A DNA stretch of 59,988 bases, filler included, from Globobulimina sp. (taxonomy: Eukaryota), in the NCBI GenBank assembly GCA_003354225.1. It is 6 parts of 6 records of this genome, joined end to end, with 100 filler letters (N's around TTAATTAATTAA, not from the genome) between each part and the next. Parts side by side here need not be neighbours in the genome. Positions count along the whole stretch, not along the records: positions 50,212 to 59,988 come from PIVH01000035.1; 5 more parts are not named here. The stretch is one strand, 5' to 3'. Each line of letters begins with the position of its first letter. Positions within the stretch are counted from its first letter, which is position 1. Position numbers and translations under genes: made by a program. The notes beneath the pieces are model-generated. The model did no database searches, was not told the origin of the DNA, and worked only from the letters and a program-made list of their open reading frames with translations. This document shows, one piece after another, positions 10,094 to 59,988 of this stretch.

Positions 10094-10124
10094 TACTAAA
10101 TTAAGTAAAATTAAGTTGAAAAAA

Positions 10125-11329: not shown

Positions 11330-11794
11330 CTCTTTAGAACCCCCCCGGAGGCTAACATTTTCAATCCTTTCGTTTCTGTTTCAGGCAAAAAGAAGTCTAA
11401 ACAAACTCACCCTAAAACAGGTAGTCAGACGTTACTCGAAATTGCCTCGGCAAAAGAGAACGCCATAAGACTTATAAAAAATGATAAAAAATGTATATTC
11501 ATTCGACTTACGCAATTAAATATTAACACAAAAAAAGAATACATAACAAATCAATTATTTTATGATTATGAGTTATTGCAGCTGAGAAACATGACATTTT
11601 GTTTGAAAATGTCATGTAATTCAGCTGCATTTACATTTACATTTATATTTATTTTAAACATGTTCAATTCGTTGAATTGCATTATATTGATTGTGATAAA
11701 TTACCCATCCATAAATATAGAAAAAAGCACACATTATTTTGTATACTATATAGAGCCGCATTCCCGCACTATTATTAACAATACGCATTATCGC

Positions 11795-20259: not shown

Positions 20260-20359
20260 NNNNNNNNNNNNNNNNNNNNNNNNNNNNNNNNNNNNNNNNN
20301 NNNTTAATTAATTAANNNNNNNNNNNNNNNNNNNNNNNNNNNNNNNNNNNNNNNNNNNN
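20260..20359. other. Artificial contig linker
   Basis: N44-TTAATTAATTAA-N44. Confidence 0.99.
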
Positions 20360-29500: not shown

Positions 29501-30251
29501 CGCTGTCGTTGATTAGTGGCTGTGCGTTTGCGACGTTATGGTACTTTTATGGCTCGACGGCGCAGACCCAGCAGGCGATGGAGTTGGCGGTGCAATCTGT
29601 GGGCGAGCGGGCGAGGCATACATTGAGTTTTGAGTTTTGGATCCCGCAGATGTTCACAGGTTATTTGATCAATGGCTTACAGACTGGAGCGTACGCTATC
29701 GATGCTGCGCAGGATGTGACTGGCGGCTTTGATGCATTTTTTGCTTCGTTTGTAGATATAAATCATACGTCGTCCATGTACGGCATTTCTATGTATAATG
29801 TGGCGGATGATAGTATGCTCGGTGCGTATTATACGCACAATGACAATCGGACCCACATCCAAACGGTGGTGGAGCAGTGTGAGCGGAATTATAATTTCAG
29901 TGCGGCATTGGGAAGAAGAGCGGGTACATACAGTAATAGTACAGCATGCGATCGTGTTTATAATCCAAAGGAGGAGCTGTGGTTTGTGCAAGCGCAGAGT
30001 TTGGAATTTGGGCAATCTGCGTGGAGTGAGCCGAAGAGCTCATTCGAGGGCGACGTGCATATGACATTGATCACGCGGTATAATTATAGCGGAGCTGAGG
30101 TGATTTTATTGGCGGAGATGAACTCGCTGACATTGGATGATATTGTACGTGTGGACAATTTGCCGGTTGGTACTGTGTTGTTTGTAGTGACGCCGACAAA
30201 GAAAGTTATCTCTGCCACGAATGGGGAGTTTATGGTGACGAATATTGCAAA
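26561..30251 (+). CDS. Large membrane receptor-like protein (SAM-like domain, TM helix, Cache-like extracellular domain); truncated by the contig end
   Basis: Intron 27581-27633 joins the two ORFs in frame. WTWQNLVSYI...YFWEYRINGPEI resembles SAM; TM helix IYIAMILVVALSLISGCAFATLWY; YNPKEELWFVQA...AWSEP resembles the dCache YDPR.RPWY...WS.P motif. Confidence 0.6.
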
Positions 30252-30351
30252 NNNNNNNNNNNNNNNNNNNNNNNNNNNNNNNNNNNNNNNNNNNNTTAAT
30301 TAATTAANNNNNNNNNNNNNNNNNNNNNNNNNNNNNNNNNNNNNNNNNNNN
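30252..30351. other. Artificial contig linker
   Basis: N44-TTAATTAATTAA-N44. Confidence 0.99.
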
Positions 30352-30386
30352 TTGCTGAAGATTTCCCGTTTGAAGATGATGACCAA

Positions 30387-32696: not shown

Positions 32697-32701
32697 TCTC
32701 T

Positions 32702-35700: not shown

Positions 35701-38700
35701 GCTGACTTGTACCAACTTAACTGAGGAAGATGAAAAAAAGGAGACAGAGGATGCCCCAAACTGCCAAAATACTCCAAAAACAAACAAAAAAGCTAAATAT
35801 CGCTCCATTGAATTGGCCATTTCCTATGCAAATCAAAACAGTGCTCCAGGATATGATGGAATAAAATCGGTACACCTCAAAACCAACGGAAACTCCATAA
35901 ATGAATTATTATGTACAATGTTCAATGTTTGGAATAAGTCGTTCTTCATTCCATATTACTGGAGACTCGGCACTGTGATACCAATATTAAAAACAAAAGA
36001 GGGCAACACGCCAAACCAATACAGACCCATTACATTATTACCTATCATTTTTAAGACATACGAAAGACTCATCCTCTGGGAAATGAGCATAAAACATAAA
36101 TTCAGAAGAAATCTACATACGTTGCAAGGCGGTAACAGATCCAGAAGAGGTGTGCCAGAACAGATTGGCTGTATCAATTTAATTGCAGAAACTGCCAAAA
36201 TGCGAGAGATTCCCCTTTATTGTGCCCTCCTTGACATCCGTAAGGCGTTTGACACAGTTTGGAGAAAAGGGCTCCTCTTCAAACTAAACAAGCAATTCAA
36301 AATACCACTAAATCTCTGCAAAATAATTCAGGCAATCTATGATAACACACAGTCTGCCATCAGAGATATACCCTTCATAACAAACAAATTCATGCTTCAT
36401 AATGGTGTGCTGCAAGGATCAGTCCTTTCACCTGTCCTCTACGCAGCATTCCTAAATGACCTAATTGAGGAACTACAAAATTCCAAATGTGGCGCCGCTT
36501 CGCCTGACCCCAATGAACTAATTGCCTGCACTCTGTACGCCGATGACATCATACTTACTGCGAATAAAATCTCCCACTTAAATAAGCTCCTAAAAATCTG
36601 CCAGAACCACAGCAACCATTGGAAATACCGATTTAATAATAAAAAATCTAAAACAATCATTTATAATGATAATACATTGAACAATAACAACATAAACACA
36701 TATAATATCAATGACATAATGCTAATAAATCATGAATACCATAATATAAATGCGATAAATAACAACAAACCCGCACCGATGATATTAATACAAAAACCTA
36801 TCAATCACAAAGTGTTGGCGATAAACATAAACAATACACTGCAATCCTATGATACCGATGAGATCCCACAAAAACACTTACAACGCTTTATAGACCATAT
36901 CAAATTCTACGATGATATCAGTAATAAACCATATCCGATAATGTGGGATAATATACGCTACGACCGAGACTTTGCACCGTCAGTAATGCATCTAAAGCTG
37001 AGACTCAATGGAGAAAGTCTACACTGTACAACTTTCATCAGATATCTAGGTGCTATGTTGTGCAGCTACGACTGCTCCAACTTGGTGTCGACGGAGTATA
37101 CAAATGCGGCGTTCCTTAAAAAACTTGACTCAAAAGCTCACATTTTGTCGACCTTAGACTTTAACCACATTTATATTTCACTCGCTGACAAAATACGAAT
37201 ACTGAAGACGTTCTACCTAGTCTACACAGAAATATTTGCACAAATTCTTGATTGTGACAAAATAAAACTCAAACAAGCCACAGACAAACAACTCAAAACA
37301 ATCCGTATACAAACAAAAATAAAAGACTTTGTTCCCGCGCAGCTTTACCTTTGGGCAGGAATCCCCACACCATATGAGAGATGGGTATCACTCAAAATCT
37401 CATTTTATTGGAAATTAATAAAAGGAGGAAACATTTCAATGATGCACCAATGGGCAAAACTCCCCCATATCCATCACCACAAACTCTTTAAACAATATAT
37501 TGATTTGAAAAACAAATGGCTGCCGCCAGTACGCCAAACCACAAACAATCGCATAACTTGGACAAACCCATTTGATTCTGTCACCCATTCACACGAACTA
37601 AAACCACTAATTGTAAAAAATCAACACATACAAATAATCAATAATTTAAATCATTACCATCCAATCAAAATCCTAAATCATGTCACAGATAATTACAAAC
37701 CGATGAATAGCTACGAACTCAACGAATTGGCAGATTACGTAAAGAATAATATGATAACTGTATATAGAGAGATATTCTATAATTTCAATACTAAAAATAA
37801 TTACTGCCACCTCTGCCATACTCGTACAAATATACCAATTGAATACCACTTAGCAGTGCTCTGCCCAAACCTAAACACCTTGAGACATGAATACTGGAAT
37901 CATGCCTCTGCAATATTTGCAAAAAGCGGCGCGGCAATAAACAAAATACATCATCATCTTTACATGCAACGACTAATTGAAATGTGCGAAAATGTCAATA
38001 CACAAAAAGCCCAATTCTGGAAAATCCTATGTGGTGCAAATATATACAACACTGACACCAATAATTTCACCTACATACATAAACAAATAAACATTAACAC
38101 AAATAAACATACCTTATACAGAGAGGTAATCTCCCAAACACACCGCTGGCTCTCCCACACACTCGACATAAACAATGGCAATAGCACCATAAGACGCATC
38201 CGATCCAAACACAACTTAGTCCCCTCAAAAATGATAATATTCCACACACGCAATGACAATTTCCATGAATGGAGATATTACCAACATAAAATCAACAGTA
38301 ATGACCTAATAATCGCCACAGACTCATCTCGCGATCCACAAACAAACACTGCAGGCATAGGCATCTGCATCATAGACAGAAACAAAATACATTGCTTCAC
38401 ACAACCTATTGGCCCGCAGTCTAATCATTATGGCGAACTCTATGCCATTCACAAATCACAATTCCTCCTCAATTACTGCAAAATAGATACTTCCAATCGG
38501 AGAATCTTAATATTTACGGACTCTTTATTCAACTTCCTTCCCCTCATAATCACTCCAAAAAATCCAAATAACAAACCACTATCCATCCTATTTAAGAACA
38601 CACAAAATTATATCAAACGTAAACAAATCATATTATGGAAAGTAAAATCACATACCAAACCCCACCAACAACCCTTTAATATGATTGCAGATATCCTAGC

Positions 38701-38881
38701 AAATATTGGCCGACAACACCCCTACAATTCTAATGTAATCACCACAAACTATAATTCAATCAGATATGCAAAATATAAATCATTCCTCTATCCTCAGGGT
38801 ATCATACCCAATGACCTTTACTCTCTCGCCGGGATGTTCAAGCAATCGGTGAGTATGGAGCCAGACTTAGATCCTGGCTGA
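32702..38881 (+). CDS. Retrotransposon 2 ORF2 polyprotein (2059 aa)
   Basis: APE: FMNING, GDFNAR, IIDY, MDH. RT: APGYDGI, YRPITL, LDIRKAFD, GVLQGSVLSP, YADD, YLG. Zinc finger: CHLC...YHLAVLC. RNase H: ATDSS, GELYAI, FTDS, VKSH, NMIADILA. Confidence 0.93.
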   Translation: MFSCPNNGCISPIVINYYNLRLIPMPSYLCFVVLLLYLYQIKCIHTAISSLFSLFICTANFSFFSYPLIINHLFSLFLTNTTSFFSNLLPLFTIFFLFLSHFSSSFFDNTFIDLHNVNIVTTNALNHSPYFKLHSKPILVLITLKIKHRQNSSDQKQFRSALDTLQNNRFYLGIKTTYSIHNYFNHYMNVIQTECVTGYMISTKDHKHTQSLYRFIERYQHRLRKIYRYLKIIMDKSLRWITVRMPQHRYHPIKSYIINHFPSHIPIRFKKIPYLNETAELTLYRQLHAFSKSPAKVLALYDFILKNNYVENDVILKQAVANNNYHIKWFVPTDKKVHDIRNHWQGTHNSLNVNIHSANRDNWINNQKNNAVISLNQIFKQAVNKYHTTNTQLRNYKNYLINKVIQGHVNNAAQSDHDIPDIILKYPFMQIYAPSIEPITSTQIKLKSMKIGFMNINGSAKTKINQMHPYMQQLVTHHKLDIILLIDTRTKHRPNWRLPGYKLMAHKAPIATNNLQNVGGILIYYRYNLKNKINLIKKTRGHNTAWISVKIKNQIKPTYIAINYTRTYKPNLSDRSLKFYNSLTDDINNYKSQCHNMYVIGDFNARMGSLTMDHNTNGHYRYMKMMLDRTNLKIANPQFAPKFLTCLAKGAQNSGGSIIDYVITNKLSSIKSMHVDTHPVFMDHRPVVFTLNNTKCETTTIDKHLILRTGAPNTALIKIHDKIIKKSTKYLKQFTENINQPRNKNERQFISHITSITTAYILHLASIKAFGLADFNTMNKWATLSRKQITLNIKQRLLMNTNNNTNAGKELMAAAEAEYIQNKQNTLTQNTIKFSNLNHSNKLKTFKTYNKNKDFILDEPFLHYNNTIMDKNEALSQFFCKINGPIDDPNDNPHIQNINDFQNALNMPSNNHLTFIPQIPTDDLKITHETSPIPTITNIEMNVDYKEEEDVLQTPHYDPNYVPITQPIMNELYALEHSDQTYNSDDDVILDMTSQTLHSPLTCTNLTEEDEKKETEDAPNCQNTPKTNKKAKYRSIELAISYANQNSAPGYDGIKSVHLKTNGNSINELLCTMFNVWNKSFFIPYYWRLGTVIPILKTKEGNTPNQYRPITLLPIIFKTYERLILWEMSIKHKFRRNLHTLQGGNRSRRGVPEQIGCINLIAETAKMREIPLYCALLDIRKAFDTVWRKGLLFKLNKQFKIPLNLCKIIQAIYDNTQSAIRDIPFITNKFMLHNGVLQGSVLSPVLYAAFLNDLIEELQNSKCGAASPDPNELIACTLYADDIILTANKISHLNKLLKICQNHSNHWKYRFNNKKSKTIIYNDNTLNNNNINTYNINDIMLINHEYHNINAINNNKPAPMILIQKPINHKVLAININNTLQSYDTDEIPQKHLQRFIDHIKFYDDISNKPYPIMWDNIRYDRDFAPSVMHLKLRLNGESLHCTTFIRYLGAMLCSYDCSNLVSTEYTNAAFLKKLDSKAHILSTLDFNHIYISLADKIRILKTFYLVYTEIFAQILDCDKIKLKQATDKQLKTIRIQTKIKDFVPAQLYLWAGIPTPYERWVSLKISFYWKLIKGGNISMMHQWAKLPHIHHHKLFKQYIDLKNKWLPPVRQTTNNRITWTNPFDSVTHSHELKPLIVKNQHIQIINNLNHYHPIKILNHVTDNYKPMNSYELNELADYVKNNMITVYREIFYNFNTKNNYCHLCHTRTNIPIEYHLAVLCPNLNTLRHEYWNHASAIFAKSGAAINKIHHHLYMQRLIEMCENVNTQKAQFWKILCGANIYNTDTNNFTYIHKQININTNKHTLYREVISQTHRWLSHTLDINNGNSTIRRIRSKHNLVPSKMIIFHTRNDNFHEWRYYQHKINSNDLIIATDSSRDPQTNTAGIGICIIDRNKIHCFTQPIGPQSNHYGELYAIHKSQFLLNYCKIDTSNRRILIFTDSLFNFLPLIITPKNPNNKPLSILFKNTQNYIKRKQIILWKVKSHTKPHQQPFNMIADILANIGRQHPYNSNVITTNYNSIRYAKYKSFLYPQGIIPNDLYSLAGMFKQSVSMEPDLDPG

Positions 38882-40230: not shown

Positions 40231-40330
40231 NNNNNNNNNNNNNNNNNNNNNNNNNNNNNNNNNNNNNNNNNNNNTTAATTAATTAANNNNNNNNNNNNNN
40301 NNNNNNNNNNNNNNNNNNNNNNNNNNNNNN
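40231..40330. other. Artificial contig linker
   Basis: N44-TTAATTAATTAA-N44. Confidence 0.99.
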
Positions 40331-45470: not shown

Positions 45471-48400
45471 ATGGCAGACTCAGGTTTATTTATAGAATTA
45501 TCACCTCAGCCTCCATCTGAATTACAAGTATCAAAATCAGTGATTCAAAGTTCATATACAATAAAACAACTACACGATCTCTTGAATGGATTTATTGAGA
45601 ATCCGGTCATTTCTAATATTAAATGTACAGACAGCTCAAATATCGTCGACGAAAAAACAATATTAGACTGTATTGACGAATGCATTGACTGTATTGATAC
45701 CGCATGGAATGATAAAACTATTTTAAACAAAACAACGAATGATGTTAAAAATTTATTATCTAAAAATGTAAAATTAGCCTACAATGCATCACATTACAAC
45801 GACGGACATGATATCATTTATGATGAACTGCTCGCTATGGCTTTGAAAACAAAAGAAATGAATTTCGTGATCCAAAAACAACAAATGATATATATCCCAG
45901 TTTAGTACTCCATATATCACAAACATATATATGTACAGTCAAGTACTTCAAACATACAATGCGTAGGAAAATTGGCAGGAAGAAAAAGTAGAACAAGTAA
46001 GAAATAATTTAACTTTTAACACTGACTATAAAACAGAGCATGATGCCTCAACTCGTGATATGAGCGAGAATGTATATAACTACATTTTGCGTGATAAAGA
46101 AATGAAAAATCAAACTCAATTATCTCGACATGCCACAATTCTTTCTGATACAACCAAGTTTGATGGTAGATATGTTTCTATTTTTCATTATTTCAGTTTT
46201 GTTTTATTTGCAATGCAGTCCGTGCAGCGATTATAGGCACCGTGAGACGCGCAGTTAAGTTGGGTACCGCCGCCAGCATTGCACTGAGTGATGAAAAGGA
46301 AACGGACATTGAATTAACTGCAGCTAAACCTAAACCGAACTCGTTTGATTCTGCGCACAATGCAGAGATTGTAATATGTGCAGGTTGCCGACAGACATTT
46401 AATAGGAACCACGGCCGATATAAAGAGACGGCGGTTTATGTGCGGGCTGATATAATGCACAATGATGAATGGTTTTGTTTTCATGATCCATACTGTGTCA
46501 CATTGCGAAGGTTGAAGGTAAGTATTCGCAGATATGTGTTGCATGAGACCTTGCAAAGAAATAACGAGAAAGATGCGGTGCGCACAGTGTACAATTATGT
46601 TACTGATTTGTTGCAGAACTATGATTTGTTGATCACTGTGGAAAAACACCATCGATTACCCAAACCATTTGGAAATAAAACAACAGCGCAGATCAAACGA
46701 CAGCTGATTCAATATAATCGAACTCATATCCACCAACTCCGAATGCGATGGGACAAATCCAACAGAGAACGCATCAAATCCTCAGACTTCCCCAAAGCGA
46801 TCAAATTTGCAAACACTATGATTTATGGCACTTCGTTAGCTACGTTTATTATCCATCAGCTATCCGCTAAACAGTCGGATGCATTGTGGCTAATTTTGGC
46901 ATTCATCTTACAAAATATGCAAACTACGACGGCCATTACGATATTGCAAGAGCACAAAGTGACATTGTTGAAGGTGCAGGATGTCAATAACTTGGATTTA
47001 GTGTTGTCGTCGGTGGTGCAATCAGCCACATATACTGTTGCCACTGCTCTCTATTTAAGCGCCTACATCAAAAGCGTTGGCCAGCGGGATGTGTCGCGAT
47101 CAAATCATTGGCAAAAGTTATCAGAGAAATATGTGGGAATTGCCTTGAAATTAGCAAACAGCTTCGAGTCTGACCATTTGTTGTCGTTACTGATGGAATG
47201 TCCCACCGATCTCGGCGGACAATCCATATTTGGCATTTGCATGAAATATGAGATTATAGATTTTCTGGACAATGCGCGGGCACAGCGAGTGTTGGCGCAT
47301 TTGTGGTCGGAATTCGATTTCTTAAATCCACACAAAAACTTCCGTGCCCAAGAAATAGGATTTGTGCAGTTGCTGTCGCGTTTGGTGCACTCTCCGAATA
47401 AGTTCTATTATTGCCCGGTGGGGGGCTATTGGGTGGACGTGGTGCTGTATACGGTGTATGTGTCCATAGTGACTGGCGTGGTCTTTGCGGGCCAGCACGA
47501 TCTGACCATATTGCCGACCGCGTTGGAGTGGAGTATGTGGTTCTGCTCTGTGGGCTATTTAGCGGCCGAGATCTCTGAAATGGTATTTCGTGGCAACAGC
47601 TATTTCCAACAGGTTGGCAATATGATGGACATTTGGATCATTGCCAACTGGGTCGTCATTGCCGTTGTGCGCTTTAACTGTGTGGGTATTGCGCATATCG
47701 ACAGTCATTGCAATGGGAGGGACTCCACCGCCGTGCTGCTGCACATGTTCTTCTTCTGTGTGCAAATTGTCATTCTATGGAGCCGCTTTGCGTTACTCTT
47801 CAAGACCTCGCAAACGGGTTAAGTTTGATGTTGCTATTTTCCATCTAAATTGGTGCCATTTGATGATATATTTAGTTGGGCCGTTTATTGCTATGTTGCC
47901 GGGGATGATGCTGGATATTTGCGTGTGGGCCTTTGTTTTGAGTATCTTTTTTGTGGGATTTGGGTTCGGTGCAAACTTTATCATTGCCGGAGACATTGAG
48001 GCATTGCCGGATTACATCTTTGTGTTTGAATATGTGTTTATTACATTGATGGGGCAGAGTGATTGGACTTATTTGAAGCCGAATCCTCATTTCAGCCCTC
48101 ATCGATCTGTTTTGCTGAAAGTGGTGATGTGGGCATTCGCCGTCATGGGCACTATATTGTTGGTCAATTTGTTGATTGCAATGATGGCTTCGACGTACGA
48201 GCATTTGCGCGAAGACAGAACGAAATTTGTAAACTTCGCGAGAGCTGCACAGATTTATACGTCCGCCTATCGCTATGCAATGATTCCAGCGCCGCTCAAC
48301 TTATTTGTGTTTGTGTTGGCAGTGTTTTGGGCCATTTTGGAAGCAGTGGTATTGCTGTGTTCGTGCCGATATTTGAGTATTAATCTGAGGCGGTTCGATG

Positions 48401-49694
48401 CAGTGAGTGTGGATTTTCATACTGACGCTGGACAAGAAAATGTGAATGCTTTCCCGCCGGGGATAGAAGATCAGGAGAAATGCGAGACACTGTACCGGGC
48501 TCTTTGCCGTATTATTTCAGTTTGTTTCGGAATTATAGATTGGATTCGAGAGATAAAAAGTATTTGATTGCATTGGTTAAACCGAATGGAGTGTGTCCTG
48601 AGTGCTTTCGGCCTTATTTGAAATGGAATAATCAGTACGAAGATGAGAGCATTTATTCCACGGATCGCTTGTATCGAAGGATTGTTGTATTGGAAATGAT
48701 ATCATTTTGGGTGTTTATGGCTGTTATGTACATTCCATTAATTATTATGTTTTCTGTTCTCGCATTATTTGTGAAAATGTTTGAAAGGTTCAGTACAATT
48801 CGCGCTGTCAAGGTCTCTGAAAATAAGAAAACTCTGCTTATTCGAGATGATAAATATACGCGTTCTGCAGAAGGTATTGTTGCGGAGGAAAGTACTGAGC
48901 TGCAACAAGTACAGCAAACATTAAATGCGCTGAATGCAAAAATGGAGAAGAAATTTAAGGTACACTTTGGTATTGAATTACATTTTCAGCTTTTATATAG
49001 CAACAAAACAACGCAATCTATAAAACCTGAAAAGTAAGCAATGCTGGAATTAACGCAAGGAATTGAAGGAAATCGATGATAAATTGTCTGTTGGCGGCCA
49101 TGCCATAGTTTTAAAGCTAGAATGAATAAAATGGCAACAACAAAAATGTTGGTGGTTGAAAACAAATCGATGAATATGGATGATGAGGATTTCATGGTTG
49201 CATTGGAACTATTGGAAGATGTCCAGGAAGAAGAAAAAAGTGGAGACAGTGGCATAAAAATGAAATTATTTGAAGCTGAGTTGGAAGAGTTGATGATAAA
49301 TAAACAAATCCGAGATAGAAAGAGGGAAAATATGAGTTTGCTGCAACAAAAATATGAATCTCAAGAAAATAAAATTAAGTTTAAAATGCAAATGATGTTA
49401 AACAACAATAAAGGCAAAGAGGTGGACAATAATGTTTTTAGTAAATTGCAGGAAACATTGAATTTAATCGACACAAAAAAACACAAATTAAAGGAGGAAA
49501 TGGAGAAAAAAGAGAGAAGATTAAAGTTTGAGGAAACTCAATATGATGAATCTGTAAATGATATTACAAATAAATTGGAAAAACTAAGGAATAATAATCA
49601 AGAGGAAAATAGTAAAATAATTGAAAATGAATTAATTGCGGATATATTACAAAATATACAAGATGATGATGAAAGCATTCCTTTTGATTTGTAA
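45471..49694 (+). CDS. TRP-family (TRPC/TRPM-like) cation channel, multi-exon, with one apparent frameshift near 48430-48480
   Basis: Six-TM core, pore FITLMGQ, S6 ILLVNLLIAMMASTY and TRP-box-like NFARA...IPAPLNL. Intron 47818-47875; C-terminal coiled coil. Terminal exon assignments are tentative. Confidence 0.75.
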
Positions 49695-50111: not shown

Positions 50112-50211
50112 NNNNNNNNNNNNNNNNNNNNNNNNNNNNNNNNNNNNNNNNNNNNTTAATTAATTAANNNNNNNNNNNNNNNNNNNNNNNNNNNNNNNNN
50201 NNNNNNNNNNN
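50112..50211. other. Artificial contig linker
   Basis: N44-TTAATTAATTAA-N44. Confidence 0.99.
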
Positions 50212-50376
50212 CTGGTATTATTATATCTTCTATTGAAGAGGCAAGAACTTATGCCGTTAATTGTGAACAGCTGATAGGAAGTGATGAGTACATAGATCGT
50301 CTTATCAGCGACGCGAGGAGGTTGTCTCCGCTCCCAGCGCTCTAACCTGTTTTAACGTGTGTGTGTTATATTTATC

Positions 50377-53300
50377 ATGCCCGCTGTGGCCAAGGACAAA
50401 AATGTAAAAACTGTACATAATATTTCTGTTGTAAATAATACTAATATTTTATCGACTACTAACAACGTAAATGTGCCAAATGTATTTTTAATTGACCATG
50501 TTTTATCTACTAATGAAGGTACAAATGAAGGTATAAATGAATCCTGCAAATTTTGTGCAAACCTTAGAAAATGTGTAAAATGCAGGAAAGATGAACGACT
50601 ATTGAAGCAGAAAATGGAGAAAGAAGCGAAGGCGAAACAAAAGGAGTTGGAGAAAGAAAAACTAGAGAAAAAATTTGTGGCAAAAAGAATACAGCCGGCA
50701 AGAGAAGCCAAAACGAGAACAAAACAAGAAAACAAAATAAACTTGAATCCACAGGATTTCTTGGATACTCCAATAACAAAAAGGTATTCTAAAGTGGATA
50801 AAAAACGTGAATCACACGAAGCTAGGTGTGATGGCGATAAAAATCCACATATTGATCATAAATTAAATATAATTGTACATACAACAGGAGAACCCAAAAT
50901 GAGTACAAATAATCCAAAGTTACAGGATATTTCAGATACCATAAAATCGGAAAGTTACTCAAAAGTGGACAATGATCGTGAATCGCACCAAATCAGGTGT
51001 GATGACGACTTAAAACCACAAATTGAGAGTGAACAAAATATACTTGAAATACCAATAATAAAAATTCAAAGTCTAAGAGAACAAATGATTAATATGGAAT
51101 TTACTGCTATGTACCAGAATACTTATACGCCTAAAAAATTAGACATTCAATACATAAATGATGAGCAGAACATAGAACTAAAGGCGAATATAGAAAAAAT
51201 TGAAAAAATAGAAATTATATCGTCGCCATTGGAATTGGTAAATGATTATAAACACAAGGATATAGGTACATACGATATAGTAACTAGATGTGAAAAACTA
51301 ATGGAGAAAAATCAGTCACTAAAAGCTAAATGGAATGCTAATATAGCTGATACAAAGCAAATACAAGCTGGAAGTACATACGATTATACGGGGGAGTATA
51401 TATCAGGTACAGCCGATAATGAGGATAAATCTGAACAAAAGGCAGAGCTAAATGATGATAAATCAATCTTCCTTGGTTACTCTGAAATAAGTTGTGAACA
51501 AACTACTGATATTAATAGAACTGTAGATACAGTGGCAAATAATATGAGTACATACAGTACAGTACCTAAGAAAGAAATCAAACATAAGCGCCATTTAAAT
51601 AAATTGACGCTAATTGTGGGGAATAGACGATACCAGAAAAAATACAATAAACACAGATTCTCTAAATATAAACGTACAATCCCTTATAATAAATTATATA
51701 TGGATGTAATAGATCACATGCGACATAAAACTAATACAAAAATATGTGAAAATGTTAATAAAAGTGTACACAAAGACCTAGATATGTCCCAAAATACCGG
51801 GCGCGTTTTAGACGGCGCAGGAAAAGGGACACCATCTATAGCAATTAAACGCGACCAAATGAACATTTTCTCAGTTCACACCACACAGAATTGCAATTTA
51901 TACAGTAATCTAGAGAGTGATATTACGGTAACAAATGCAAAACAGCTTAATGTGAACACGGAAAATAAAAATGAAAAAATAGAATTTTCGAGAACATTTC
52001 GAAACGAAAACGATCGAAAGGAAGAGGAAGAAATAATATTCGAAAGAAATTTGACGGAATTTATTGGAAAAGTGATAGAACGAGACCAAAATTATTCAAA
52101 ATTGGGAAGAATAAAGGACATAAATCAGGGGAAAAAAGGAAAGAACGACGGAACAAAAGTAAGTTATATACATTTTATTGCGGTAATATTGAAAGATATC
52201 GTATCATCAGTACAAGGTATTATGAGCTATATCGATCCAGTAAAAAATAGCATTAAAACTAAAAAATCGAAAGGTAAATCGACGCAATCTTCAGCGAAGA
52301 AACCTAAAAATAAATCGAATATTATATTACGTTTTGAAGCGGAGGCGAAGGATAACAAGAATTCACTTGAATCCTCACCCCCTTCGACATCAATTGATAA
52401 TAAACATATGCTTGAAATGTTAAGTAATACGAATTATGACGAACAAAATGATAATAGTAAATTAAATGACGACAACGATGAAATAAATGAAATCATAAAT
52501 AATCGAAGAATACTTTCAGGTATGGACAAGAAAGAAGAAGGAAAAGGAGAAACAACGGAAAAACAAAAAATTGAAAAGGAGGCCAATAGCTCAGAACTCA
52601 CTGATGCTATGACCGTCCTTTCAACTGAGAATAACGAAACTTTAACTAAAATGGACTCACAAACGACAAGTACAAATAGAACAGAAACAAGTACAGATAA
52701 TACAGATGACGTATCAGAATATACTGGTTACGCAGCTGCACGGTATAATCCTGAAAATCCAACACACTATTTAGCTCATGTAGATAAATATAAGTACCCT
52801 AAAGCATTAGCTACATTTATAAATGATATATATGACAATAATGACCATCAGATAGATACAGGTAGTATACCCTTGACATTGTCAATCGATACACCTCCTA
52901 TGATGGAAAGTGATATGAGTACAGAAGAGGCAAAATTATTGGAGGTACGAAAATTCTATATATTTCAAATGACCACATTTATGGGATATGAATCCGATGA
53001 AGGACCAAAAAATAGAACGAAGAATATGGAAATTATACAAATTTTACGACGATATATAGATGAATGCATAGAAAAACCGGATACAAAAGTAGCAGGTTCA
53101 CAAATTGGAGCTATAATGGAAAGAATCGAAGAATCACAATTTGTTGGTTTAACAAGATCGATAGATACAATGGAAAATATATTACATATGAATAAAGAAC
53201 ACGTGACTTTTCTCTTGACTACGAATCAATGGATTTTTAGCTTGAGTAAAACTTTGCGTGATAACACTTCAATTATAACAAATCTAAATACTGAAGTTAA

Positions 53301-56064
53301 GAATGCAAACGAACGAACGAAAAATTTGGAATCATATTTTAAACAAAATATGGCTCAAATGTATAACCATTTCAATGAATTGAAAGTGTCGACGGAGGCG
53401 GTACAAAGAGAAAATGTAGAACTTAAAGCACAACTGGGAAATATACAAAAATTAGTAGAGAATATGAACAAAGATATGACAACAGCACAAATATTGCAAG
53501 AGACACCAAAAGAAGAGGAAATGGAACAACCAAGAAATGTAAAAGATATTCTAATTGGAGGAGACATCAACTGTCCATTCCACTGGGATTTCAATACAGG
53601 TATTAGACTTATTACAAAAATTGACGACGAATCAGAAGAAATCATTATGACATATTATAGTTTTTCACATTATTTAATGACTCAAATCGCCATTAGGTGT
53701 TTGGACATAATAATGGTTAAACAACTACAAAATATTAAGAACAAAGCTTGTTTTGATTATATCTTAGCACAATGTCCAATTGAGAAATATATTGAAAATA
53801 TTAAATTATTCACAAACGAGTGGATAGCTGAACAATATTTCAATTATATCAAAGGTTGGACAAGTAAAAGTATCCCTATGGCAGCACTTTGTGGTAAAAT
53901 AGGTTCGGAACAATATAATCCTAAATTCCTGATGACCAATAAATTAGGCATCGGTTATACGGCAAGACAGAAAAATATATATACGGTACATGTTGAAAAG
54001 GACGGAACTGACGAGAATTTACTCGGAGCAGTCATCCAGCATATTGCAAATCAATTTAAAGATAAATATGAGACAGCTGATATTGAAACAAAAAAATATG
54101 CAGATTTTGAATTTAAGGAATCAATGAAATATTGGTCCGTAATGTGCTTAGAGAACGATCAACTCAGATCGATCCGAAATGAAGCAATTTTATGGACAAT
54201 ATGGGATAAAAAATCGAGAATAAACGGAGATATTATGAAATTACGGTTAGAACGATTTACATTTGCAAACACACAGCATGAACCCGGATTTAATCTGGCA
54301 AATGCACCTTGGACAACTCATTTGAATAAAACGGAACTAAACTCGGCTAAACTAATAGCTAAGGATATGTTCCCTGATATGAAACAAGATTATATGACAG
54401 AATTACAAAAACAAATACAAATTATTGTGAACAAAAAAGTGGCTGATACTGAAGCAAGTTATTCTTCAATAGAGCCATCGAACATATTTGATATATTTTC
54501 AACTGAAAAAACGAATGAAGCACAAAAAAATGAACAACAACCACATCCACAGCCCTCACCGGGATGGACCCCGTCACGACAAATACCAACGCCACAACAA
54601 AGAATAATCCCAGATGTACAACCTGTGCCATTTGCCCCATATCAATTTAATTTGCCTACGGTACAACAACAACAACAAATGCAAACCCAACAACAACAAT
54701 CACAACCACAAATAGATCCATCCGAACAATTCAGATTACCATCACAACCAGAACCATATGAACAAAGAGAGCATAGAGGAAGAATGAGAGGAAGAGGAAG
54801 ACAATATAGAAGTGGAATGGGAAGAGGTACATATACTGGTAGGGGGGAACAAGAATTTACCAGTTCTGACTCAAGATCTGAATCTCGTGATCCGCCCTAC
54901 CCCAATATCAAAAATGTGGACAGATCTTATCCATGGTCTGCAGCACATTACATGGGAATAAATGTACCTGGAAAAAGAGAAGCTGTCAGTCCCGCTTCCT
55001 TTGTTGATCCAAAGAAACAAAAACCTATGTCAACAACTGATATTATAAATGAAGTCAGGCATAGATTACCATCCATACCTTACTCATTGAAGTTTGTAGA
55101 AAAGAAAATTGGAGCTGGAGTGGTGTTGGATTTAGCAGCCCACCCAGAACATAACAAAGATATTCATGCTGATAGATGTACAAAAATTATGGGAGATGAC
55201 ACAAGATTTAAAGGAATTCCTTTACCCTTGGCAAGTATAACGGAAAGAAGAGGTTTAAATGAATTCGGGGTTACTGTAGACCCAAAATCGACAATTAAAG
55301 TCCCCAGATTTCTGAAAATCTCAGTAATCGGGGACTCTACAGTAATTGGATTAGAAGAATACTTAAATATGACAATAAATGAATTTGAACCACGAAAATG
55401 GATCAATGGGTACACCGGATCAAAAACATCAAGCAACGCGCTGATGAGTTTACGACTAAGAGAAATGGAATCTCTCATCCCAGGATTCGTCACGGGAGAT
55501 GAAGATGTAATTATAATTAAAGGAGTACTAGATACAGCTGATATCATAAACAATCAAATGAAAGCTAGAGTTACTGATGACTGGAAACATTATTGCGCTG
55601 ATGTGGTACAACAAATTACAAATATAGCACTAAATATACAAAGCATTAACTCAAATGCTTTGATATTGGTGAGTATAACACAACCGATACTTTCAAATAC
55701 ACCATATATGTATGATTCTGAGGATATCGGATTTTTGAGACTTATACACAAAATTGAGGATTATTTTTGGTATTTGTTATATAATATGGCAATAACGAAT
55801 AAATTAGCATTACGTATGATACATTTGGCAGCAGCCATTACAGAAGAAGCTACAAAATTAAAAGACACAGTTGAATTAGAATTAAAGGGTGCAGGAAATA
55901 CAGATGTAAACATCTCTATAAATGACACTTTATTAAAATTCATATACGGTATAAAATTGAAAAATAATGGCAAAAAAGTACTAGCTAATGAGATAGTACG
56001 AGAAACAATAATTGGTTGGTTACGAGGACAAGCAGAAGGAATTTTGAAGAACAAGGGAAACTAA
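50377..56064 (+). CDS. Retrotransposon 3 ORF1 (~1895 aa): low-complexity regions, coiled coil, Q/P- and RG-rich tracts, C-terminal SGNH/GDSL-like domain
   Basis: ISVIGDS, GYTGSK, DVIIIKGVLD and GIKL..NG..VLA..I follow the SGNH block order. Confidence 0.8.
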   Translation: MPAVAKDKNVKTVHNISVVNNTNILSTTNNVNVPNVFLIDHVLSTNEGTNEGINESCKFCANLRKCVKCRKDERLLKQKMEKEAKAKQKELEKEKLEKKFVAKRIQPAREAKTRTKQENKINLNPQDFLDTPITKRYSKVDKKRESHEARCDGDKNPHIDHKLNIIVHTTGEPKMSTNNPKLQDISDTIKSESYSKVDNDRESHQIRCDDDLKPQIESEQNILEIPIIKIQSLREQMINMEFTAMYQNTYTPKKLDIQYINDEQNIELKANIEKIEKIEIISSPLELVNDYKHKDIGTYDIVTRCEKLMEKNQSLKAKWNANIADTKQIQAGSTYDYTGEYISGTADNEDKSEQKAELNDDKSIFLGYSEISCEQTTDINRTVDTVANNMSTYSTVPKKEIKHKRHLNKLTLIVGNRRYQKKYNKHRFSKYKRTIPYNKLYMDVIDHMRHKTNTKICENVNKSVHKDLDMSQNTGRVLDGAGKGTPSIAIKRDQMNIFSVHTTQNCNLYSNLESDITVTNAKQLNVNTENKNEKIEFSRTFRNENDRKEEEEIIFERNLTEFIGKVIERDQNYSKLGRIKDINQGKKGKNDGTKVSYIHFIAVILKDIVSSVQGIMSYIDPVKNSIKTKKSKGKSTQSSAKKPKNKSNIILRFEAEAKDNKNSLESSPPSTSIDNKHMLEMLSNTNYDEQNDNSKLNDDNDEINEIINNRRILSGMDKKEEGKGETTEKQKIEKEANSSELTDAMTVLSTENNETLTKMDSQTTSTNRTETSTDNTDDVSEYTGYAAARYNPENPTHYLAHVDKYKYPKALATFINDIYDNNDHQIDTGSIPLTLSIDTPPMMESDMSTEEAKLLEVRKFYIFQMTTFMGYESDEGPKNRTKNMEIIQILRRYIDECIEKPDTKVAGSQIGAIMERIEESQFVGLTRSIDTMENILHMNKEHVTFLLTTNQWIFSLSKTLRDNTSIITNLNTEVKNANERTKNLESYFKQNMAQMYNHFNELKVSTEAVQRENVELKAQLGNIQKLVENMNKDMTTAQILQETPKEEEMEQPRNVKDILIGGDINCPFHWDFNTGIRLITKIDDESEEIIMTYYSFSHYLMTQIAIRCLDIIMVKQLQNIKNKACFDYILAQCPIEKYIENIKLFTNEWIAEQYFNYIKGWTSKSIPMAALCGKIGSEQYNPKFLMTNKLGIGYTARQKNIYTVHVEKDGTDENLLGAVIQHIANQFKDKYETADIETKKYADFEFKESMKYWSVMCLENDQLRSIRNEAILWTIWDKKSRINGDIMKLRLERFTFANTQHEPGFNLANAPWTTHLNKTELNSAKLIAKDMFPDMKQDYMTELQKQIQIIVNKKVADTEASYSSIEPSNIFDIFSTEKTNEAQKNEQQPHPQPSPGWTPSRQIPTPQQRIIPDVQPVPFAPYQFNLPTVQQQQQMQTQQQQSQPQIDPSEQFRLPSQPEPYEQREHRGRMRGRGRQYRSGMGRGTYTGRGEQEFTSSDSRSESRDPPYPNIKNVDRSYPWSAAHYMGINVPGKREAVSPASFVDPKKQKPMSTTDIINEVRHRLPSIPYSLKFVEKKIGAGVVLDLAAHPEHNKDIHADRCTKIMGDDTRFKGIPLPLASITERRGLNEFGVTVDPKSTIKVPRFLKISVIGDSTVIGLEEYLNMTINEFEPRKWINGYTGSKTSSNALMSLRLREMESLIPGFVTGDEDVIIIKGVLDTADIINNQMKARVTDDWKHYCADVVQQITNIALNIQSINSNALILVSITQPILSNTPYMYDSEDIGFLRLIHKIEDYFWYLLYNMAITNKLALRMIHLAAAITEEATKLKDTVELELKGAGNTDVNISINDTLLKFIYGIKLKNNGKKVLANEIVRETIIGWLRGQAEGILKNKGN
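56055..56061 (+). promoter_or_regulatory. Putative -1 ribosomal frameshift slippery heptamer G_GGA_AAC
   Basis: X_XXY_YYZ in ORF1 phase, immediately before the ORF1 TAA. ORF2 is in the -1 frame and is open from 55992. Confidence 0.75.
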
Positions 56065-59000
56065 ATGAGGTCAGTTCAGTTTATAATCATCACTATACAA
56101 ATAATTATAAATATTTATTTTCAGATACAAAACCATACAAACAAATAAACAAAGACAAAGATTATGAAATAAAAATTAATAAGAAACAAATCTTTGATAT
56201 TTTATATCATAATGCTTGTTCTATGAACACAAAAATTGATATTATTCGCGATAATACAAATGAAATAAAACCTGATATAATGTGCTGTGTTGAAACTAAA
56301 TATAAAAATACATTAGACATACACAAAATTGATGGATATGAAGGATTTCATAAAATGCAGACGAATAACAAAACTGGAGGTATAAGTATTTGGACAAAAC
56401 CTGAAATAAAAGCAACAAGATTAGATATAGATGATAACGATGATGATATTGCAGCTAATTATCTATGGATTTTATGTCAAAATAGAAATATGACTGCAGT
56501 ATGCACAGTATATTTAAGAAACCAAAGTGACAAAAAAGCTAGAGACACTAATACAGTGATTTGTCAGCGATTAATCCAGCATACTAATTGGTGTAGAATA
56601 CAAAAATACAAAGTTATCATAATAGGTGACTTTAATGGACACATAGGAAATGATGAATGGGGTATACCCGGAAATCATGATAATATTAATAACAATGGAT
56701 TTATAGTTAGAAATTTCATTAATGATTCTAATTTAATATTAGCTAATAATGATGAACAAACGATAGGAAAATGGACATGGGGAAAAGACAAAAAGAATAC
56801 TCAACCACAAATATTAGATTTGGTATTAAGAACAGAGGATATTATAAATATTAAAATGGAAATTGATGAAAATAACACCATATATGGAAATGGCAATAAA
56901 GATCATTGCTTCATATATGGCCAATTTGAAAGTACAAGAAATGATAATACAAAAAAACAAATAATAAAGAAAAAATGGAAAATAAATGATGAAATAGATT
57001 GGTCACAATATCAAAACGAAATAAAAATAAAACTAGAAAATAGAAATAAAAATGAAGGTATTAATGAAAACGAAATTATACAAATAATTGAACAAACGGG
57101 GGAAAACACTATAGGATATAAAAATAATATAGGAAAAACAAAAAGAAAAGAATCAAAAAAAATAAAAATGATTAATGAACAAATTAAAATTATTAGAAAA
57201 AAATTACGACAGAAAAATATTTTTAAAGGGAATTTAATGAACGAATTATTTACAAAATTAAGAGAAAAAAAACAGATTAGAATGAGAGCTGAAATGGCGA
57301 GAATAGAGAAAGCACATAATAAATGGATAAACAATCCTAAACGAAAATTCCACCAATTATACGATTCAATGAAAACATTAAAACGAGGAGTTACCGAACA
57401 AGTAACACTAATTGATGATCAAAATCAACCAATAATTGGAGAGGAAAAAATAAAACAGCATATATCTGAATTTTGGGAAGATATTTTCACGCTTGGTATA
57501 TGGCCAGAAGCCAATGACAACATAAAAAGATTAGGATTGAGTGACACTATAAAAGGACCTGATAAACTGGAATTAGAAAATGAAATTACTACAAAGGAAA
57601 TGAATAATGCAATAAAGAAATTAAAAAATAATACTTCTGCAGGATCAACGAATTTACCACCAGAATTTATTAAAAACTGGCCTCCGGAAATGATAGAAAC
57701 TGTCAGAGTACTATTTAATAAATGGTATGACACTAGTTACTTCCCAGAAATTGGGAAAACACAAGAAGTAACTTTATTACATAAAAAAGGATCAAAAAGT
57801 AAAATAAAAAATTATAGAACTTTAAGTTTAGGATGTAATTTATGCAAATTATACCTTCACATTATCACAAAACGAATTGAAGTAGTTACAGAGAAGAAAA
57901 ATCTACTAGGATATATACAACATGGATTTAGAGCTAATAAAAGAATAGAAGATTGTATTATGGTAATACAACATACTATCGATAAAGCTAAAAAATTAAG
58001 ACAATCTGAATCTTCAATTATAGCACTACTAGACATATGTAAAGCATATGATAGAGTATGGCGTGAAGGATTATGGAAAAAACTTAAAGAATATGGATTC
58101 CCAGACAAATTAATTAATGCTATAAAAAGTAGCTACCAAAATCCAGGAGCAACTATTACATTCCAAAATATTACAACAAATAAATTACCTATGCCTGTTG
58201 GATTAAGACAAGGGTGTACAATGTCGCCAATACTCTGGAATTTATACATATCAGATTTAGGACGAGAAATTGAAAAATGTAACTTGGGAATCGATATTGG
58301 CAATGCACAAAACAAAAAGAATATTTCTGGACTATTCTTTGCAGACGATATGTTACTATTTGCTAAAAACGAAAAGAACATGAAACTTTTATTGAAGATA
58401 GTAAGCAATTATGCACAAAAATGGAAAATCGAATTTTCAGGTCCAAAGTCACTAATAATCCCTTTAAAAAGAAATATTGATAACGAATATAGATGGGCAC
58501 TGGGATACAAATTTTTAAAAGAAACTACAAAAACAGATATTTATATACAAGAAGAAAAAGAGGCTAAATACTTAGGTATTACCCTCAGTAAACACAAACG
58601 AGACATGACAACTCAGCACAAAGTAAGACTTAGAGAGACAACAATGAAACAAACGTATAAATGTTATAAACCAGCCATTTCAACAGCAAGACAAATAGTA
58701 TATGGATCTAAAATATGGAAAACATATGTAATAGCAAGAATTTTACATGGAATTGCAGCTATAATATTTTCCAACAAAACTTTTATTGGAATTGAAAAAC
58801 AACAACGACAATATATAAGAACAATATCTAGATTACCCAGACATACCAATCTCATGGTATTATATGGTGAAACGGATATAATACCCATGCAAATGGAAGC
58901 TGAAAAAAGAACTATTAACTATTTGGCACATTTACAAAAGTTGGATACTAATAACATAGTAAAAATAGCATTACTAGACCAAATGGAAATGTATGACAAC

Positions 59001-59600
59001 AATCCTTCAACAACTACATGGTTAAAACATGCGTATAATTGTTGTAGAAAATATAATATTAGCTACAATAATATACCAAGTAAAAGTAAGGTAAAAGAAT
59101 GTATACATAACAAATGGATAGAGGAATACCGAGACAAATTAGACCAATCTAATTCCTTAATACTGTACTTAAGTAAAACCACTCCTAAAATCAATTATAA
59201 ATTAAATTTGCATACAGGTGGTGACTTTTGGCTAAAAGCAAGAAGCGGTAGCATGATTATAAATGCAAATAGAAATGAATCATGTACTAGATGTGAATAT
59301 GACATATTAGAAAACATAAATCATATGATTTGGGAATGCGAAAATAACATAATGCTTGATAATTATGAAAATAATATACAAAAATTATGGATTCTACTCC
59401 CAGACGATATAAATGGACATCTTAAACCAGATTATAATAATTGTACAGATATGGACCGAAAGGCATATTTGTTTCTATGTTCTGAGTTTATATTTAGTGA
59501 CAATGCTAGTGGACAAATAATCAATATAGTGGGCACAATAATAAAAGACACATATAATATTCGACCAGAAACTATACAATATAAGTTACAAAGAAAATAA
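56055..59600 (+). CDS. Retrotransposon 3 ORF2: AP endonuclease, reverse transcriptase, CCHC finger (no RNase H)
   Basis: APE: YHNACS, VET, GDFNGH, ILDL, KDH. RT: NYRTLSL, QHGFR, LDICKAYD, GLRQGCTMSP, FADD, YLG. Zinc finger: CTRC...ENINHMIWEC. Confidence 0.95.
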   Translation, partial: GKLNEVSSVYNHHYTNNYKYLFSDTKPYKQINKDKDYEIKINKKQIFDILYHNACSMNTKIDIIRDNTNEIKPDIMCCVETKYKNTLDIHKIDGYEGFHKMQTNNKTGGISIWTKPEIKATRLDIDDNDDDIAANYLWILCQNRNMTAVCTVYLRNQSDKKARDTNTVICQRLIQHTNWCRIQKYKVIIIGDFNGHIGNDEWGIPGNHDNINNNGFIVRNFINDSNLILANNDEQTIGKWTWGKDKKNTQPQILDLVLRTEDIINIKMEIDENNTIYGNGNKDHCFIYGQFESTRNDNTKKQIIKKKWKINDEIDWSQYQNEIKIKLENRNKNEGINENEIIQIIEQTGENTIGYKNNIGKTKRKESKKIKMINEQIKIIRKKLRQKNIFKGNLMNELFTKLREKKQIRMRAEMARIEKAHNKWINNPKRKFHQLYDSMKTLKRGVTEQVTLIDDQNQPIIGEEKIKQHISEFWEDIFTLGIWPEANDNIKRLGLSDTIKGPDKLELENEITTKEMNNAIKKLKNNTSAGSTNLPPEFIKNWPPEMIETVRVLFNKWYDTSYFPEIGKTQEVTLLHKKGSKSKIKNYRTLSLGCNLCKLYLHIITKRIEVVTEKKNLLGYIQHGFRANKRIEDCIMVIQHTIDKAKKLRQSESSIIALLDICKAYDRVWREGLWKKLKEYGFPDKLINAIKSSYQNPGATITFQNITTNKLPMPVGLRQGCTMSPILWNLYISDLGREIEKCNLGIDIGNAQNKKNISGLFFADDMLLFAKNEKNMKLLLKIVSNYAQKWKIEFSGPKSLIIPLKRNIDNEYRWALGYKFLKETTKTDIYIQEEKEAKYLGITLSKHKRDMTTQHKVRLRETTMKQTYKCYKPAISTARQIVYGSKIWKTYVIARILHGIAAIIFSNKTFIGIEKQQRQYIRTISRLPRHTNLMVLYGETDIIPMQMEAEKRTINYLAHLQKLDTNNIVKIALLDQMEMYDNNPSTTTWLKHAYNCCRKYNISYNNIPSKSKVKECIHNKWIEEYRDKLDQSNSLILYLSKTTPKINYKLNLHTGGDFWLKARSGSMIINANRNESCTRCEYDILENINHMIWECENNIMLDNYENNIQKLWILLPDDINGHLKPDYNNCTDMDRKAYLFLCSEFIFSDNASGQIINIVGTIIKDTYNIRPETIQYKLQRK

Positions 59601-59813
59601 ATTTAAATACAAATAACATTTACTACAATCTAATGATTTGATCAAGAAAGATTCCATTGGACTCAAGCCAGATGCCTCCAAGATGACCAGAATCCGGAAT
59701 TCGAAGATGGCAAACTGGGAATCTAAAGAATCAAATCAAAAATAAATTAACATTTAATTAACATTTACTAATTCAATTGTGATTTTACTAACATTTATTT
59801 TGTGATACAAATT

Positions 59814-59898
59814 GTGATGATTAGGAAGCCTTGTTACTTATATTATAAGTCTGTGCTTTTACAAATAAATTGAACTGACCAAAAAAAATTGAACTGAC
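59814..59898 (+). promoter_or_regulatory. 3' UTR element complementary to the frameshift-proximal sequence 56069-56093
   Basis: GTGATGATTA (59814-59823) and ATAAATTGAACTGACC (59865-59880), plus a second copy AAATTGAACTGAC (59886-59898). Confidence 0.7.
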
Positions 59899-59988
59899 AT
59901 AAGGCAAGTAAAAGGTGTTTTGGGCTTTAAAATCTTGTTTTTAATGTTGTTCGTGAGCACACATATATTAGGGTTAGCAAAAAATGTG

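Follow-up and report, generated by a model that had tools for sequence, protein, structure and literature searches.

In retroviruses, long terminal repeat (LTR) retrotransposons and the genes derived from them, Gag-Pol is made by -1 frameshifting: an upstream open reading frame (ORF) for a structural or RNA-binding protein overlaps an enzymatic ORF in the -1 frame, an in-phase X_XXY_YYZ heptamer lies at the end of the upstream ORF, and little fusion protein is expected. PEG10 and some plant viruses have GGGAAAC as their heptamer. The X_XXY_YYZ consensus and, as part of the canonical -1 site, a stimulatory structure 5–9 nt downstream are described in the accessible part of PMC3542737. A comparable layout was found in a long interspersed nuclear element (LINE) of the foraminiferan Globobulimina sp. 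(assembly GCA_003354225.1), which stands alone on the last piece (50212–59988) of the 59,988 nt stretch of DNA analysed here (the window). This element differs from the Gag-Pol systems in being of the non-LTR kind, mobilised by target-primed reverse transcription, in having no predicted stem-loop or pseudoknot 5–9 nt downstream of the heptamer, in a zero-frame stop codon that abuts the heptamer, and in a first ORF (ORF1) of 1,895 aa that is unrelated to Gag.

The closest precedent comes from another protist. In the accessible text of a study of Paramecium germline LINEs (Guerin et al., 2017; PMC5405496), translation of the second ORF (ORF2) was attributed, from consensus sequences, to frameshifting or reinitiation in groups 1 and 2 and to readthrough of the ORF1 stop in group 3, the same kind of inference as is made below. 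The shift proposed there is +1 and that text states no shift site, whereas the Globobulimina element would use a -1 shift with a canonical, conserved heptamer, and the putative frameshift and readthrough types interleave here within one family at a homologous codon.

How LINEs translate ORF2 is a long-standing puzzle, and the experimentally studied L1 and SART1 elements use reinitiation. SART1 and mammalian L1 resemble the present element in a bicistronic RNA and in the dependence of ORF2 on ribosomes that have translated ORF1, according to the accessible parts of PMC5972666 and PMC3894237; they differ in making a separate ORF2 protein (ORF2p) from a restart codon, whereas the Globobulimina element has no in-frame restart AUG. 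The accessible text of a 2013 review of non-LTR protein biogenesis contains zero occurrences of either frameshift or readthrough (PMC3894237), and in that of a 2016 review of recoding HeT-A and TART are the sole non-LTR elements named (PMC5009743). No earlier account of a LINE that uses a -1 heptamer, or of LINEs in Foraminifera, was found in a literature search that mostly lay outside subscription journals. LINE ORFs that overlap have been reported descriptively in older work. Programmed ribosomal frameshifting, readthrough and the idea of recoding in LINEs are already known; four points appear to be new: a -1 site conserved where ORF1 ends, its replacement by readthrough at that very codon in some relatives, the size of the giant ORF1, and the occurrence in Foraminifera, a host group whose genomes are barely described and in which LINEs are documented here.

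Anatomy and conservation of the ORF1/ORF2 junction

The element was intact and had the layout of an APE-type non-LTR retrotransposon, its ORF2 encoding an N-terminal APE endonuclease domain (Exo_endo_phos_2, E = 5.7e-7; Exo_endo_phos, E = 1.8e-4) and a central reverse transcriptase (RT) domain (Table 1). A preliminary description, made from the DNA sequence of the window, had placed ORF2 in the -1 frame and its first ATG beyond the first APE motif, and both placements were confirmed: the open frame of ORF2 extends from 55992 to 59600 and shares 73 nt with ORF1, and the first ATG in it is at 56223 (residue 78), inside the APE domain and downstream of the motif LYHNAC at 56202–56219. The L, Y, N and C of this motif (LYxNxC) were invariant in all four elements that could be aligned, and its Asn presumably corresponds to an active-site residue of the L1 endonuclease. 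ORF2 could start at its own ATG only with the loss of this invariant motif. ORF1 ends AAG GGA AAC TAA, which places GGGAAAC (56055–56061) in X_XXY_YYZ phase as had been described, and the ATG that follows the stop directly (56065) is, also as described, in the wrong frame; it belongs to the ORF1 frame, which closes after 27 codons, and would trap reinitiating ribosomes. In length, the fusion of ~3070 aa foreseen earlier agrees with the sum of the two parts (1,895 + 1,179 = 3,074 aa). No 3' boundary of the element was delimited in 59601–59988, and the contig starts at 50212.

Programmed -1 frameshifting that yields a 3,074-aa ORF1–ORF2 fusion is the best explanation of this layout, and one in which we have moderate confidence. 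Most ribosomes would translate the 1,895 aa of ORF1 and end at the UAA at 56062, whilst a minority would slip back one base on G_GGA_AAC, either in tandem or by a move of the P-site tRNA-Asn alone, AAC to AAA, while UAA occupies the A site. The stop directly adjoins the heptamer in most of the family, which suggests that the slip is helped when this codon is decoded slowly, and the stop may act as a pausing 'shifty stop', for which potato virus M offers a precedent. Shifted ribosomes would read CUA at 56061 and then a flexible linker, the endonuclease and the RT, and the product would be a small share of fusion protein, analogous to Gag-Pol. A very low slip efficiency may suffice, since LINEs presumably need little ORF2p. 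That ribosomes slip, how often they do so, what the stop contributes and that a fusion protein exists are matters of inference from the sequence features set out below.

Three features expected of -1 frameshifting were present: an overlapping -1 ORF that lacks a start, an in-phase heptamer, and conservation of the site among relatives. The relatives came from a scan of assembled-genome contigs, in which 42 pattern matches led to four related loci (L001–L004), all on short contigs of one genome record (G001) labelled as a gammaproteobacterial metagenome-assembled genome. These loci are plainly eukaryotic LINEs, so the record must contain mis-binned eukaryotic DNA; eukaryotic repeats are thus found within records labelled as bacterial genomes. 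The junction was spanned by three of the loci (L001, L002 and L003), giving, with the window, four elements for comparison. Their ORF2 identities were 56–68 %, and each had exactly one interruption, located at the ORF1/ORF2 boundary.

In L003 (56 % ORF2 identity; ORF1 of 1,913 aa), ORF2 lies in the -1 frame with an overlap of 19 nt (5818–5836), and the junction reads CGG GAA AAC TAT TAA in the ORF1 frame, so that the shift window contains G_GAA_AAC. The heptamers of the window element and L003 differ at one base (GGGAAAC vs GGAAAAC), a difference that is synonymous in the ORF2 frame (GGG/GGA). In the other two relatives, each with 68 % ORF2 identity, ORF1 and ORF2 share one frame and are separated by one TGA in L002 (context TGA CTA G) and by one TAA in L001 (context TAA CAA TTA). 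The window element, L003 and L002 all have CTA as the codon that follows the site, and the stop of L002 occupies the position of the slip codon in the window element and L003. As expected of readthrough, L001 and L002 each have two long ORFs parted by just one stop, which is in frame and in a context known to be leaky. Readthrough signals include type I, stop-CAR-YYA, and type II, UGA-CUA/CGG, in the accessible part of PMC3542737; by that source the UAA-CAA-UUA of L001 is a type I CARYYA signal, verbatim that of pomovirus RNA2, and the UGA-CUA of L002 is of type II. These contexts belong to relatives and not to the window element, the host here is a protist, and the extended stem-loop proposed for viral type II signals is not predicted. 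In these sister elements the same fusion would be made by readthrough of the single in-frame stop at the homologous codon.

The end of ORF1 was conserved in a particular way. Of 1.84 billion representative proteins searched with a profile built from the C-terminal domain of ORF1, six were matched, namely the ORF1 of L003 and five singletons (P0036–P0040) encoded on contigs of 787–2,263 nt. The domain was C-terminal wherever the end was visible (residues 1620–1907 of 1,908, 404–660 of 668 and 13–288 of 299), and it was fused to APE or RT in none of the six. ORF1 ended in NKGN-stop in the window element, RENY-stop in L003 and RPN-stop in L002, and the other five ends were YQGNE-stop, ETEN-stop, YTEN-stop, MPEN-stop and TSGN-stop. 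An Asn was thus present at all eight ORF1 ends and was preceded by Gly or Glu in seven; the stop followed the Asn immediately in six and one codon later in two. The tail from the Gly-Trp pair to the end varied in sequence, with a length of 12–22 residues in seven of the eight (P0037 lacks that tryptophan). Against a background of 1.0 % per position for [G/E]-N, seven of eight would give P ~1e-11 if the sequences were independent, a value that overstates the case because the ORF1 ends are homologues; the neighbouring residues are nonetheless unconserved. In the DNA of the two -1 elements (window and L003), [G/E]-N is encoded by GGA AAC or GAA AAC with a G preceding. This pattern is what would be expected of a nucleotide-level signal (GRA-AAY plus stop), not of a protein motif. 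Conservation of the heptamer in related elements, proposed beforehand as a check, held to the extent that [G/E]-N precedes the stop in seven of eight ORF1 ends, and failed for the exact heptamer in L003, where G_GAA_AAC is non-canonical.

Between the ORF1 stop and LYxNxC lies a linker of 45, 56, 103 and 61 codons in the window element, L001, L002 and L003, respectively, which is A-rich, of low complexity and unconserved. In all four elements it is free of stops in the ORF2 frame, whilst the other two frames contain 2–19 stops (2 and 7 in the window element). In shuffled sequences such openness had probabilities of 0.0076 (window), 0.00095 (L001), 5e-5 (L002) and 0.0036 (L003). An ORF2-frame ATG is absent from the linker in three of the four, L003 having two. 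A linker that is kept open in every element and lacks an ATG in three of four points to its translation directly past the ORF1 stop, with no conventional start codon involved.

In an ORF2 tree built with mafft and FastTree, and rooted with two LINE proteins of 22–24 % identity, L003 (-1) branched first, followed by P0004 and by L001 (in-frame); the window element (-1) and L002 (in-frame) were sisters with a support of 0.95. The called protein of P0004, too, starts at the M inside the APE motif. Because the -1 and in-frame types are intermixed on the tree, the junction type has switched at least two times among the four elements. A wider proposal would be that a LINE family of Foraminifera always makes a fusion of ~3,000 aa by recoding and has repeatedly switched between structure-free -1 frameshifting on G_GRA_AAC beside a 'shifty' stop and readthrough at the same codon; we put it forward tentatively, at a little short of an even chance. 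If it is true, the retroviral Gag-Pol logic would have evolved convergently in a non-LTR retrotransposon. With no start codon for ORF2, a conserved slip site at the end of ORF1 and a leaky stop at the same codon in sister elements, the family would offer a natural, testable example of Gag-Pol-like control of stoichiometry in a non-LTR element and a matched pair in which frameshifting and readthrough can be compared, and its -1 frameshifting would apparently need no RNA structure.

Further searches added no junction to the set. Contigs of metagenomes and of viruses scanned with an APE alignment yielded no relatives among 137 and 37 pattern matches, respectively, and a metagenome scan with the full ORF2 gave one distant LINE (L017; 28 % identity, a single ORF on its contig), which was uninformative. 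The whole of G001 (3.1 Mb) contained three APE, two ORF1-domain and nine RT matches, mostly on short contigs, and no further junction. Among genomes related to G001, an APE scan matched 1 of 101, G001 itself, and of 400 scored with the ORF1 domain two matched, G001 and, at chance level (19.8 bits), G291. Nothing was retrieved when a word index was queried with the C-terminus of ORF1.

Several observations weigh against frameshifting as the route to ORF2. Canonical heptamers occur in phase at 9 of 1,901 ORF1 codon positions (0.47 %), so that ~0.11 would be expected by chance in the 24-codon overlap; G_GGA_AAC is the only one there, and taken alone it is weakly significant for this reason. It is the comparative evidence, rather than the heptamer alone, that carries the case. 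A stimulatory structure 5–9 nt downstream, a defining feature of such sites, was not predicted. Minimum free energy (MFE) folds of the four elements (n = 6) were no better than shuffles (z between -0.05 and +2.0; the models covered neither pseudoknots nor long-range pairing), with -3.4 kcal/mol and z = +0.44 for 56062–56160 of the window and z = +0.64 and +0.87 for L003, and a search of 55800–56500 against Rfam at E <= 1 gave no match. The heptamer of L003 would require a G:U pair when the P-site codon changes from GAA to GGA; a similarly imperfect P-site heptamer is known from dianthoviruses. L001 and L002 have an in-frame stop instead of a frameshift, and the interleaving of frame types on the tree would be simpler under a mechanism indifferent to frame, such as reinitiation. 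The CTA after the L002 stop may reflect shared descent rather than selection for readthrough. L001 is a weaker independent witness, since its ORF1 (439 aa) is unrelated to the other ORF1s, and DNA could be read for three of the eight ORF1 ends, P0036–P0040 being known as proteins alone. The retrovirus-style -1 route of the preliminary description therefore stands in part: the lack of a usable ORF2 start, the conserved site and the linker open in four of four elements speak for it, and the missing structure prediction, the L003 heptamer and the two in-frame stops speak against it.

Alternative routes to ORF2

Reinitiation is the strongest alternative, although we regard it as unlikely. It would be termination-dependent and AUG-independent, would begin at a non-AUG codon near the stop in any frame, and would release a separate ORF2p; the conserved GGRAAAC would then be a tethering or positioning signal and not a slip site. 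Reinitiation is the route of the studied LINEs, with UAAUG coupling in SART1 and termination-reinitiation in mammalian L1 (accessible parts of PMC5972666 and PMC3894237). It would easily accommodate a tree on which 0 and -1 frames are mixed and is consistent with the failure to predict a frameshift-stimulating structure, and another LINE in the same window (element B, below) has an ATG 6 nt past its ORF1 stop in the -1 frame. Against this, three of the four elements have no ORF2-frame ATG near the stop, a restart AUG is lacking in the window element, and the stop-adjacent ATG that it does have is out of frame and would capture restarting ribosomes. The site is also a canonical slippery heptamer in the correct phase, and the in-frame relatives have recognised readthrough contexts. 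A +1 arrangement was seen in none of the four elements, although this has a probability of ~0.2 if all frames are equal.

Removal of a short intron from a fraction of the transcripts is a distinctly improbable route. The intron would run from the Gly-Trp codons (GGT/TGG) to a TTTYAG/ATA acceptor and place ORF2 in the frame of ORF1. The best frame-joining GT..AG candidates lie at analogous positions in both -1 elements (Table 1), which tells against frameshifting, and the host does have short introns, as in the 58 nt example at 47818–47875. The candidate donors, GTTGGT and GTTGGA, are weak, however, matching GTAAGT at 3–4 of 6 positions; they exist because the Gly-Trp codons are conserved, and L002 reads GGA TGG at the donor position and so lacks the GT. 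The candidates are about twice as long as the one verified host intron. Splicing would leave both the conserved [G/E]-N-stop end of ORF1 and the in-frame relatives, which have no good intron candidates, unexplained, and it should give rise to intron-less copies, whereas fused forms were found at 0 of 4 loci and in 0 of 6 proteins.

Other intron-like stretches were noted just past the stop. One of 55 nt (GAG/GTCAGT..TTTTCAG/, 56070–56124) follows the ORF1 stop of the window element, and L002 contains a similar GTAAGT..TTTCAG at 609–660 (52 nt) and another at 729–784. At ~52–56 nt they resemble the verified host intron in length and may be due to chance in AT-rich DNA. As a route to ORF2, those at 56070–56124 and at 609–660 of L002 were rejected, since their removal does not join ORF2 to the ORF1 frame.

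That the window element is a dead copy, whose ancestor had a continuous ORF or an in-frame stop and which suffered a 1-nt indel near the junction, is very improbable. The frames would be fused if the A-run in GGGAAAC were one base longer, and the ORF1 frame stays open for 27 codons beyond the stop. Elsewhere, however, the two ORFs are unbroken for 1,895 and 1,179 codons in DNA of ~30 % GC, L003 has the same -1 layout at just 56 % ORF2 identity, and the searches gave no continuous-ORF relative. An error of assembly at the junction is excluded. A separate contig assembled from run X1 (1,327 nt, depth 10) spans 55000–56293 with no gaps and no indels listed, and despite 11 substitutions relative to the window, all at or before 55807, it contains no indel; X1 is probably the source of the window itself, so that the contig tests the assembly and is not an independent sample. 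A search for sequencing runs gave three from one sample, of which X1 contained the stretch (0.82 of its words), and no RNA run that did so. In X1, 111 contigs had at least 80 % likeness to the element; their summed depth was ~10 along ORF1 and reached 185 along ORF2, which is suggestive of multiple copies with 5' truncation or higher 3' coverage, although contig depth does not equal copy number. Continuous-ORF copies or an indel at the junction, named beforehand as what would speak against frameshifting, were thus looked for and not found: there were none among the four junction loci, the six ORF1-domain proteins or the gapless X1 contig.

An alternative genetic code was rejected because ORFs of 1,200–2,000 codons are open under the standard code, and transcriptional slippage because the A-run has just 3–4 bases.

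The ORF1 protein and feature coordinates

At 1,895 aa the ORF1 is unusually large among LINEs. A Pfam search of ORF1 gave no match. Residues ~1400–1480 are of low complexity, Q/P-rich and RG-rich, and a middle domain (residues ~1056–1346) is common to the ORF1 of L003 and apparently also to P0037. The C-terminal domain, likewise common to the window and L003 ORF1s, contains a GDS(T/S/C) block that is kept in five of the eight aligned ORF1 sequences, these being the ones that cover the block. Its look-alikes in a language-model comparison were GDSL lipases (score 0.92, to be taken as a lead only), whilst a profile search of the PDB gave chance-level matches only (E >= 0.19) and the AlphaFold2 model (pLDDT 43) was too poor for a fold search. 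The domain is possibly GDSL/SGNH-esterase-like. In the GDS block and the GDSL look-alikes it resembles the esterase-type ORF1 of CR1/L2-like LINEs such as ZfL2-1 (accessible part of PMC3905857); it differs in that this ORF1 has no Pfam or PDB match and no reliable fold, and is several times longer.

Table 1. Positions of the features discussed, counted along the window unless another element is named
Feature	Position	Strand	Details
ORF1	50377–56064	+	1,895 aa from first ATG, plus stop; frame open from 50356
ORF1 C-terminal domain and variable tail ending KGN	55153–56061	+	GDST 55330–55341; GW 56014–56019
ORF2 open frame	55992–59600	+	-1 relative to ORF1
ORF1/ORF2 overlap	55992–56064	+	73 nt; any -1 shift must fall here
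Candidate intron GT..AG (ttg/GTTGGT ... TTTTCAG/ata)	56015–56124	+	110 nt; L003 equivalent 5763–5857, 95 nt
G_GGA_AAC, proposed slippery heptamer	56055–56061	+	Last two sense codons of ORF1
ORF2-frame part after putative shift	56061–59600	+	1,179 aa plus stop
ORF1 stop TAA	56062–56064	+	Directly 3' of heptamer
ATG in ORF1 frame just past stop	56065–56145	+	27-codon dead-end ORF
Linker	56067–56201	+	45 codons, no stop or ATG in ORF2 frame; unconserved
APE endonuclease domain	56202–56915	+	Begins at invariant LYxNxC motif
RT domain	57783–58586	+	RVT_1, E = 1.3e-33; FADD 58338–58349
ORF2 C-terminal zinc-knuckle-like CX2C...HX4C motif	59283–59339	+	Pattern match only
Junction of window element, ORF2 frame			CAA GGG AAA CTA AAT GAG GTC AGT; QGKLNEVS
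Junction of L003, ORF2 frame			ACG GGA AAA CTA TTA AGG; TGKLLR
Junction of L002, ORF2 frame			CCA AAT TGA CTA GAC GTA AGT; PN(stop)LDVS
Ion-channel-like host gene	46170–49034	+	Weak Ion_trans match; spread over several frames
Linkers between pieces of the window	10125–10224, 20260–20359, 30252–30351, 40231–40330, 50112–50211

Other content of the window

The window is not continuous genome; it consists of six pieces of ~10 kb joined by linkers of the form N44-TTAATTAATTAA-N44. ORFs that seem to cross the joins (e.g. 27634–30303 and 30300–32696) are artefacts of this concatenation. The DNA is eukaryotic, with a GC content of about 30–35 %, and contains three LINE-like elements and host genes. 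One of these genes, for the cytidylyltransferase described below, makes a foraminifer the most likely host.

The second LINE (element B, 30352–38881) encodes an ORF2 of 2,063 aa, with APE from residue 475 and RT from residue 1103. This ORF2, in the -1 frame, shares 7 nt with the upstream ORF (TAA at 32694–32696); an ATG at 32702, past that stop, gives a reinitiation-like layout, unlike that of the element studied here. The third LINE (element A, 11303–19647) has an ORF1 of 1,198 aa without a Pfam match, followed by a spacer of ~400 nt and an ORF2 of 1,450 aa (APE, RT and RNase H) with its own ATG near 15298.

A GC-rich island at 28001–30000 (0.50, compared with ~0.33 elsewhere) had no Pfam match and lies within an open frame (27634–30251) that reaches a contig end. 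The host intron referred to above is in the ion-channel-like gene and has the donor GTTAAGT and the acceptor TATTTAG. Two further host genes without visible introns were found at 8837–10120 and 2786–6901, both on the minus strand; one encodes an ethanolamine-phosphate cytidylyltransferase and the other a WD40 protein of 1,371 aa. The best named match of the cytidylyltransferase was in a transcriptome of the foraminiferan genus Ammonia (67 % identity over 97 % of the query), with Reticulomyxa next at 50 %.

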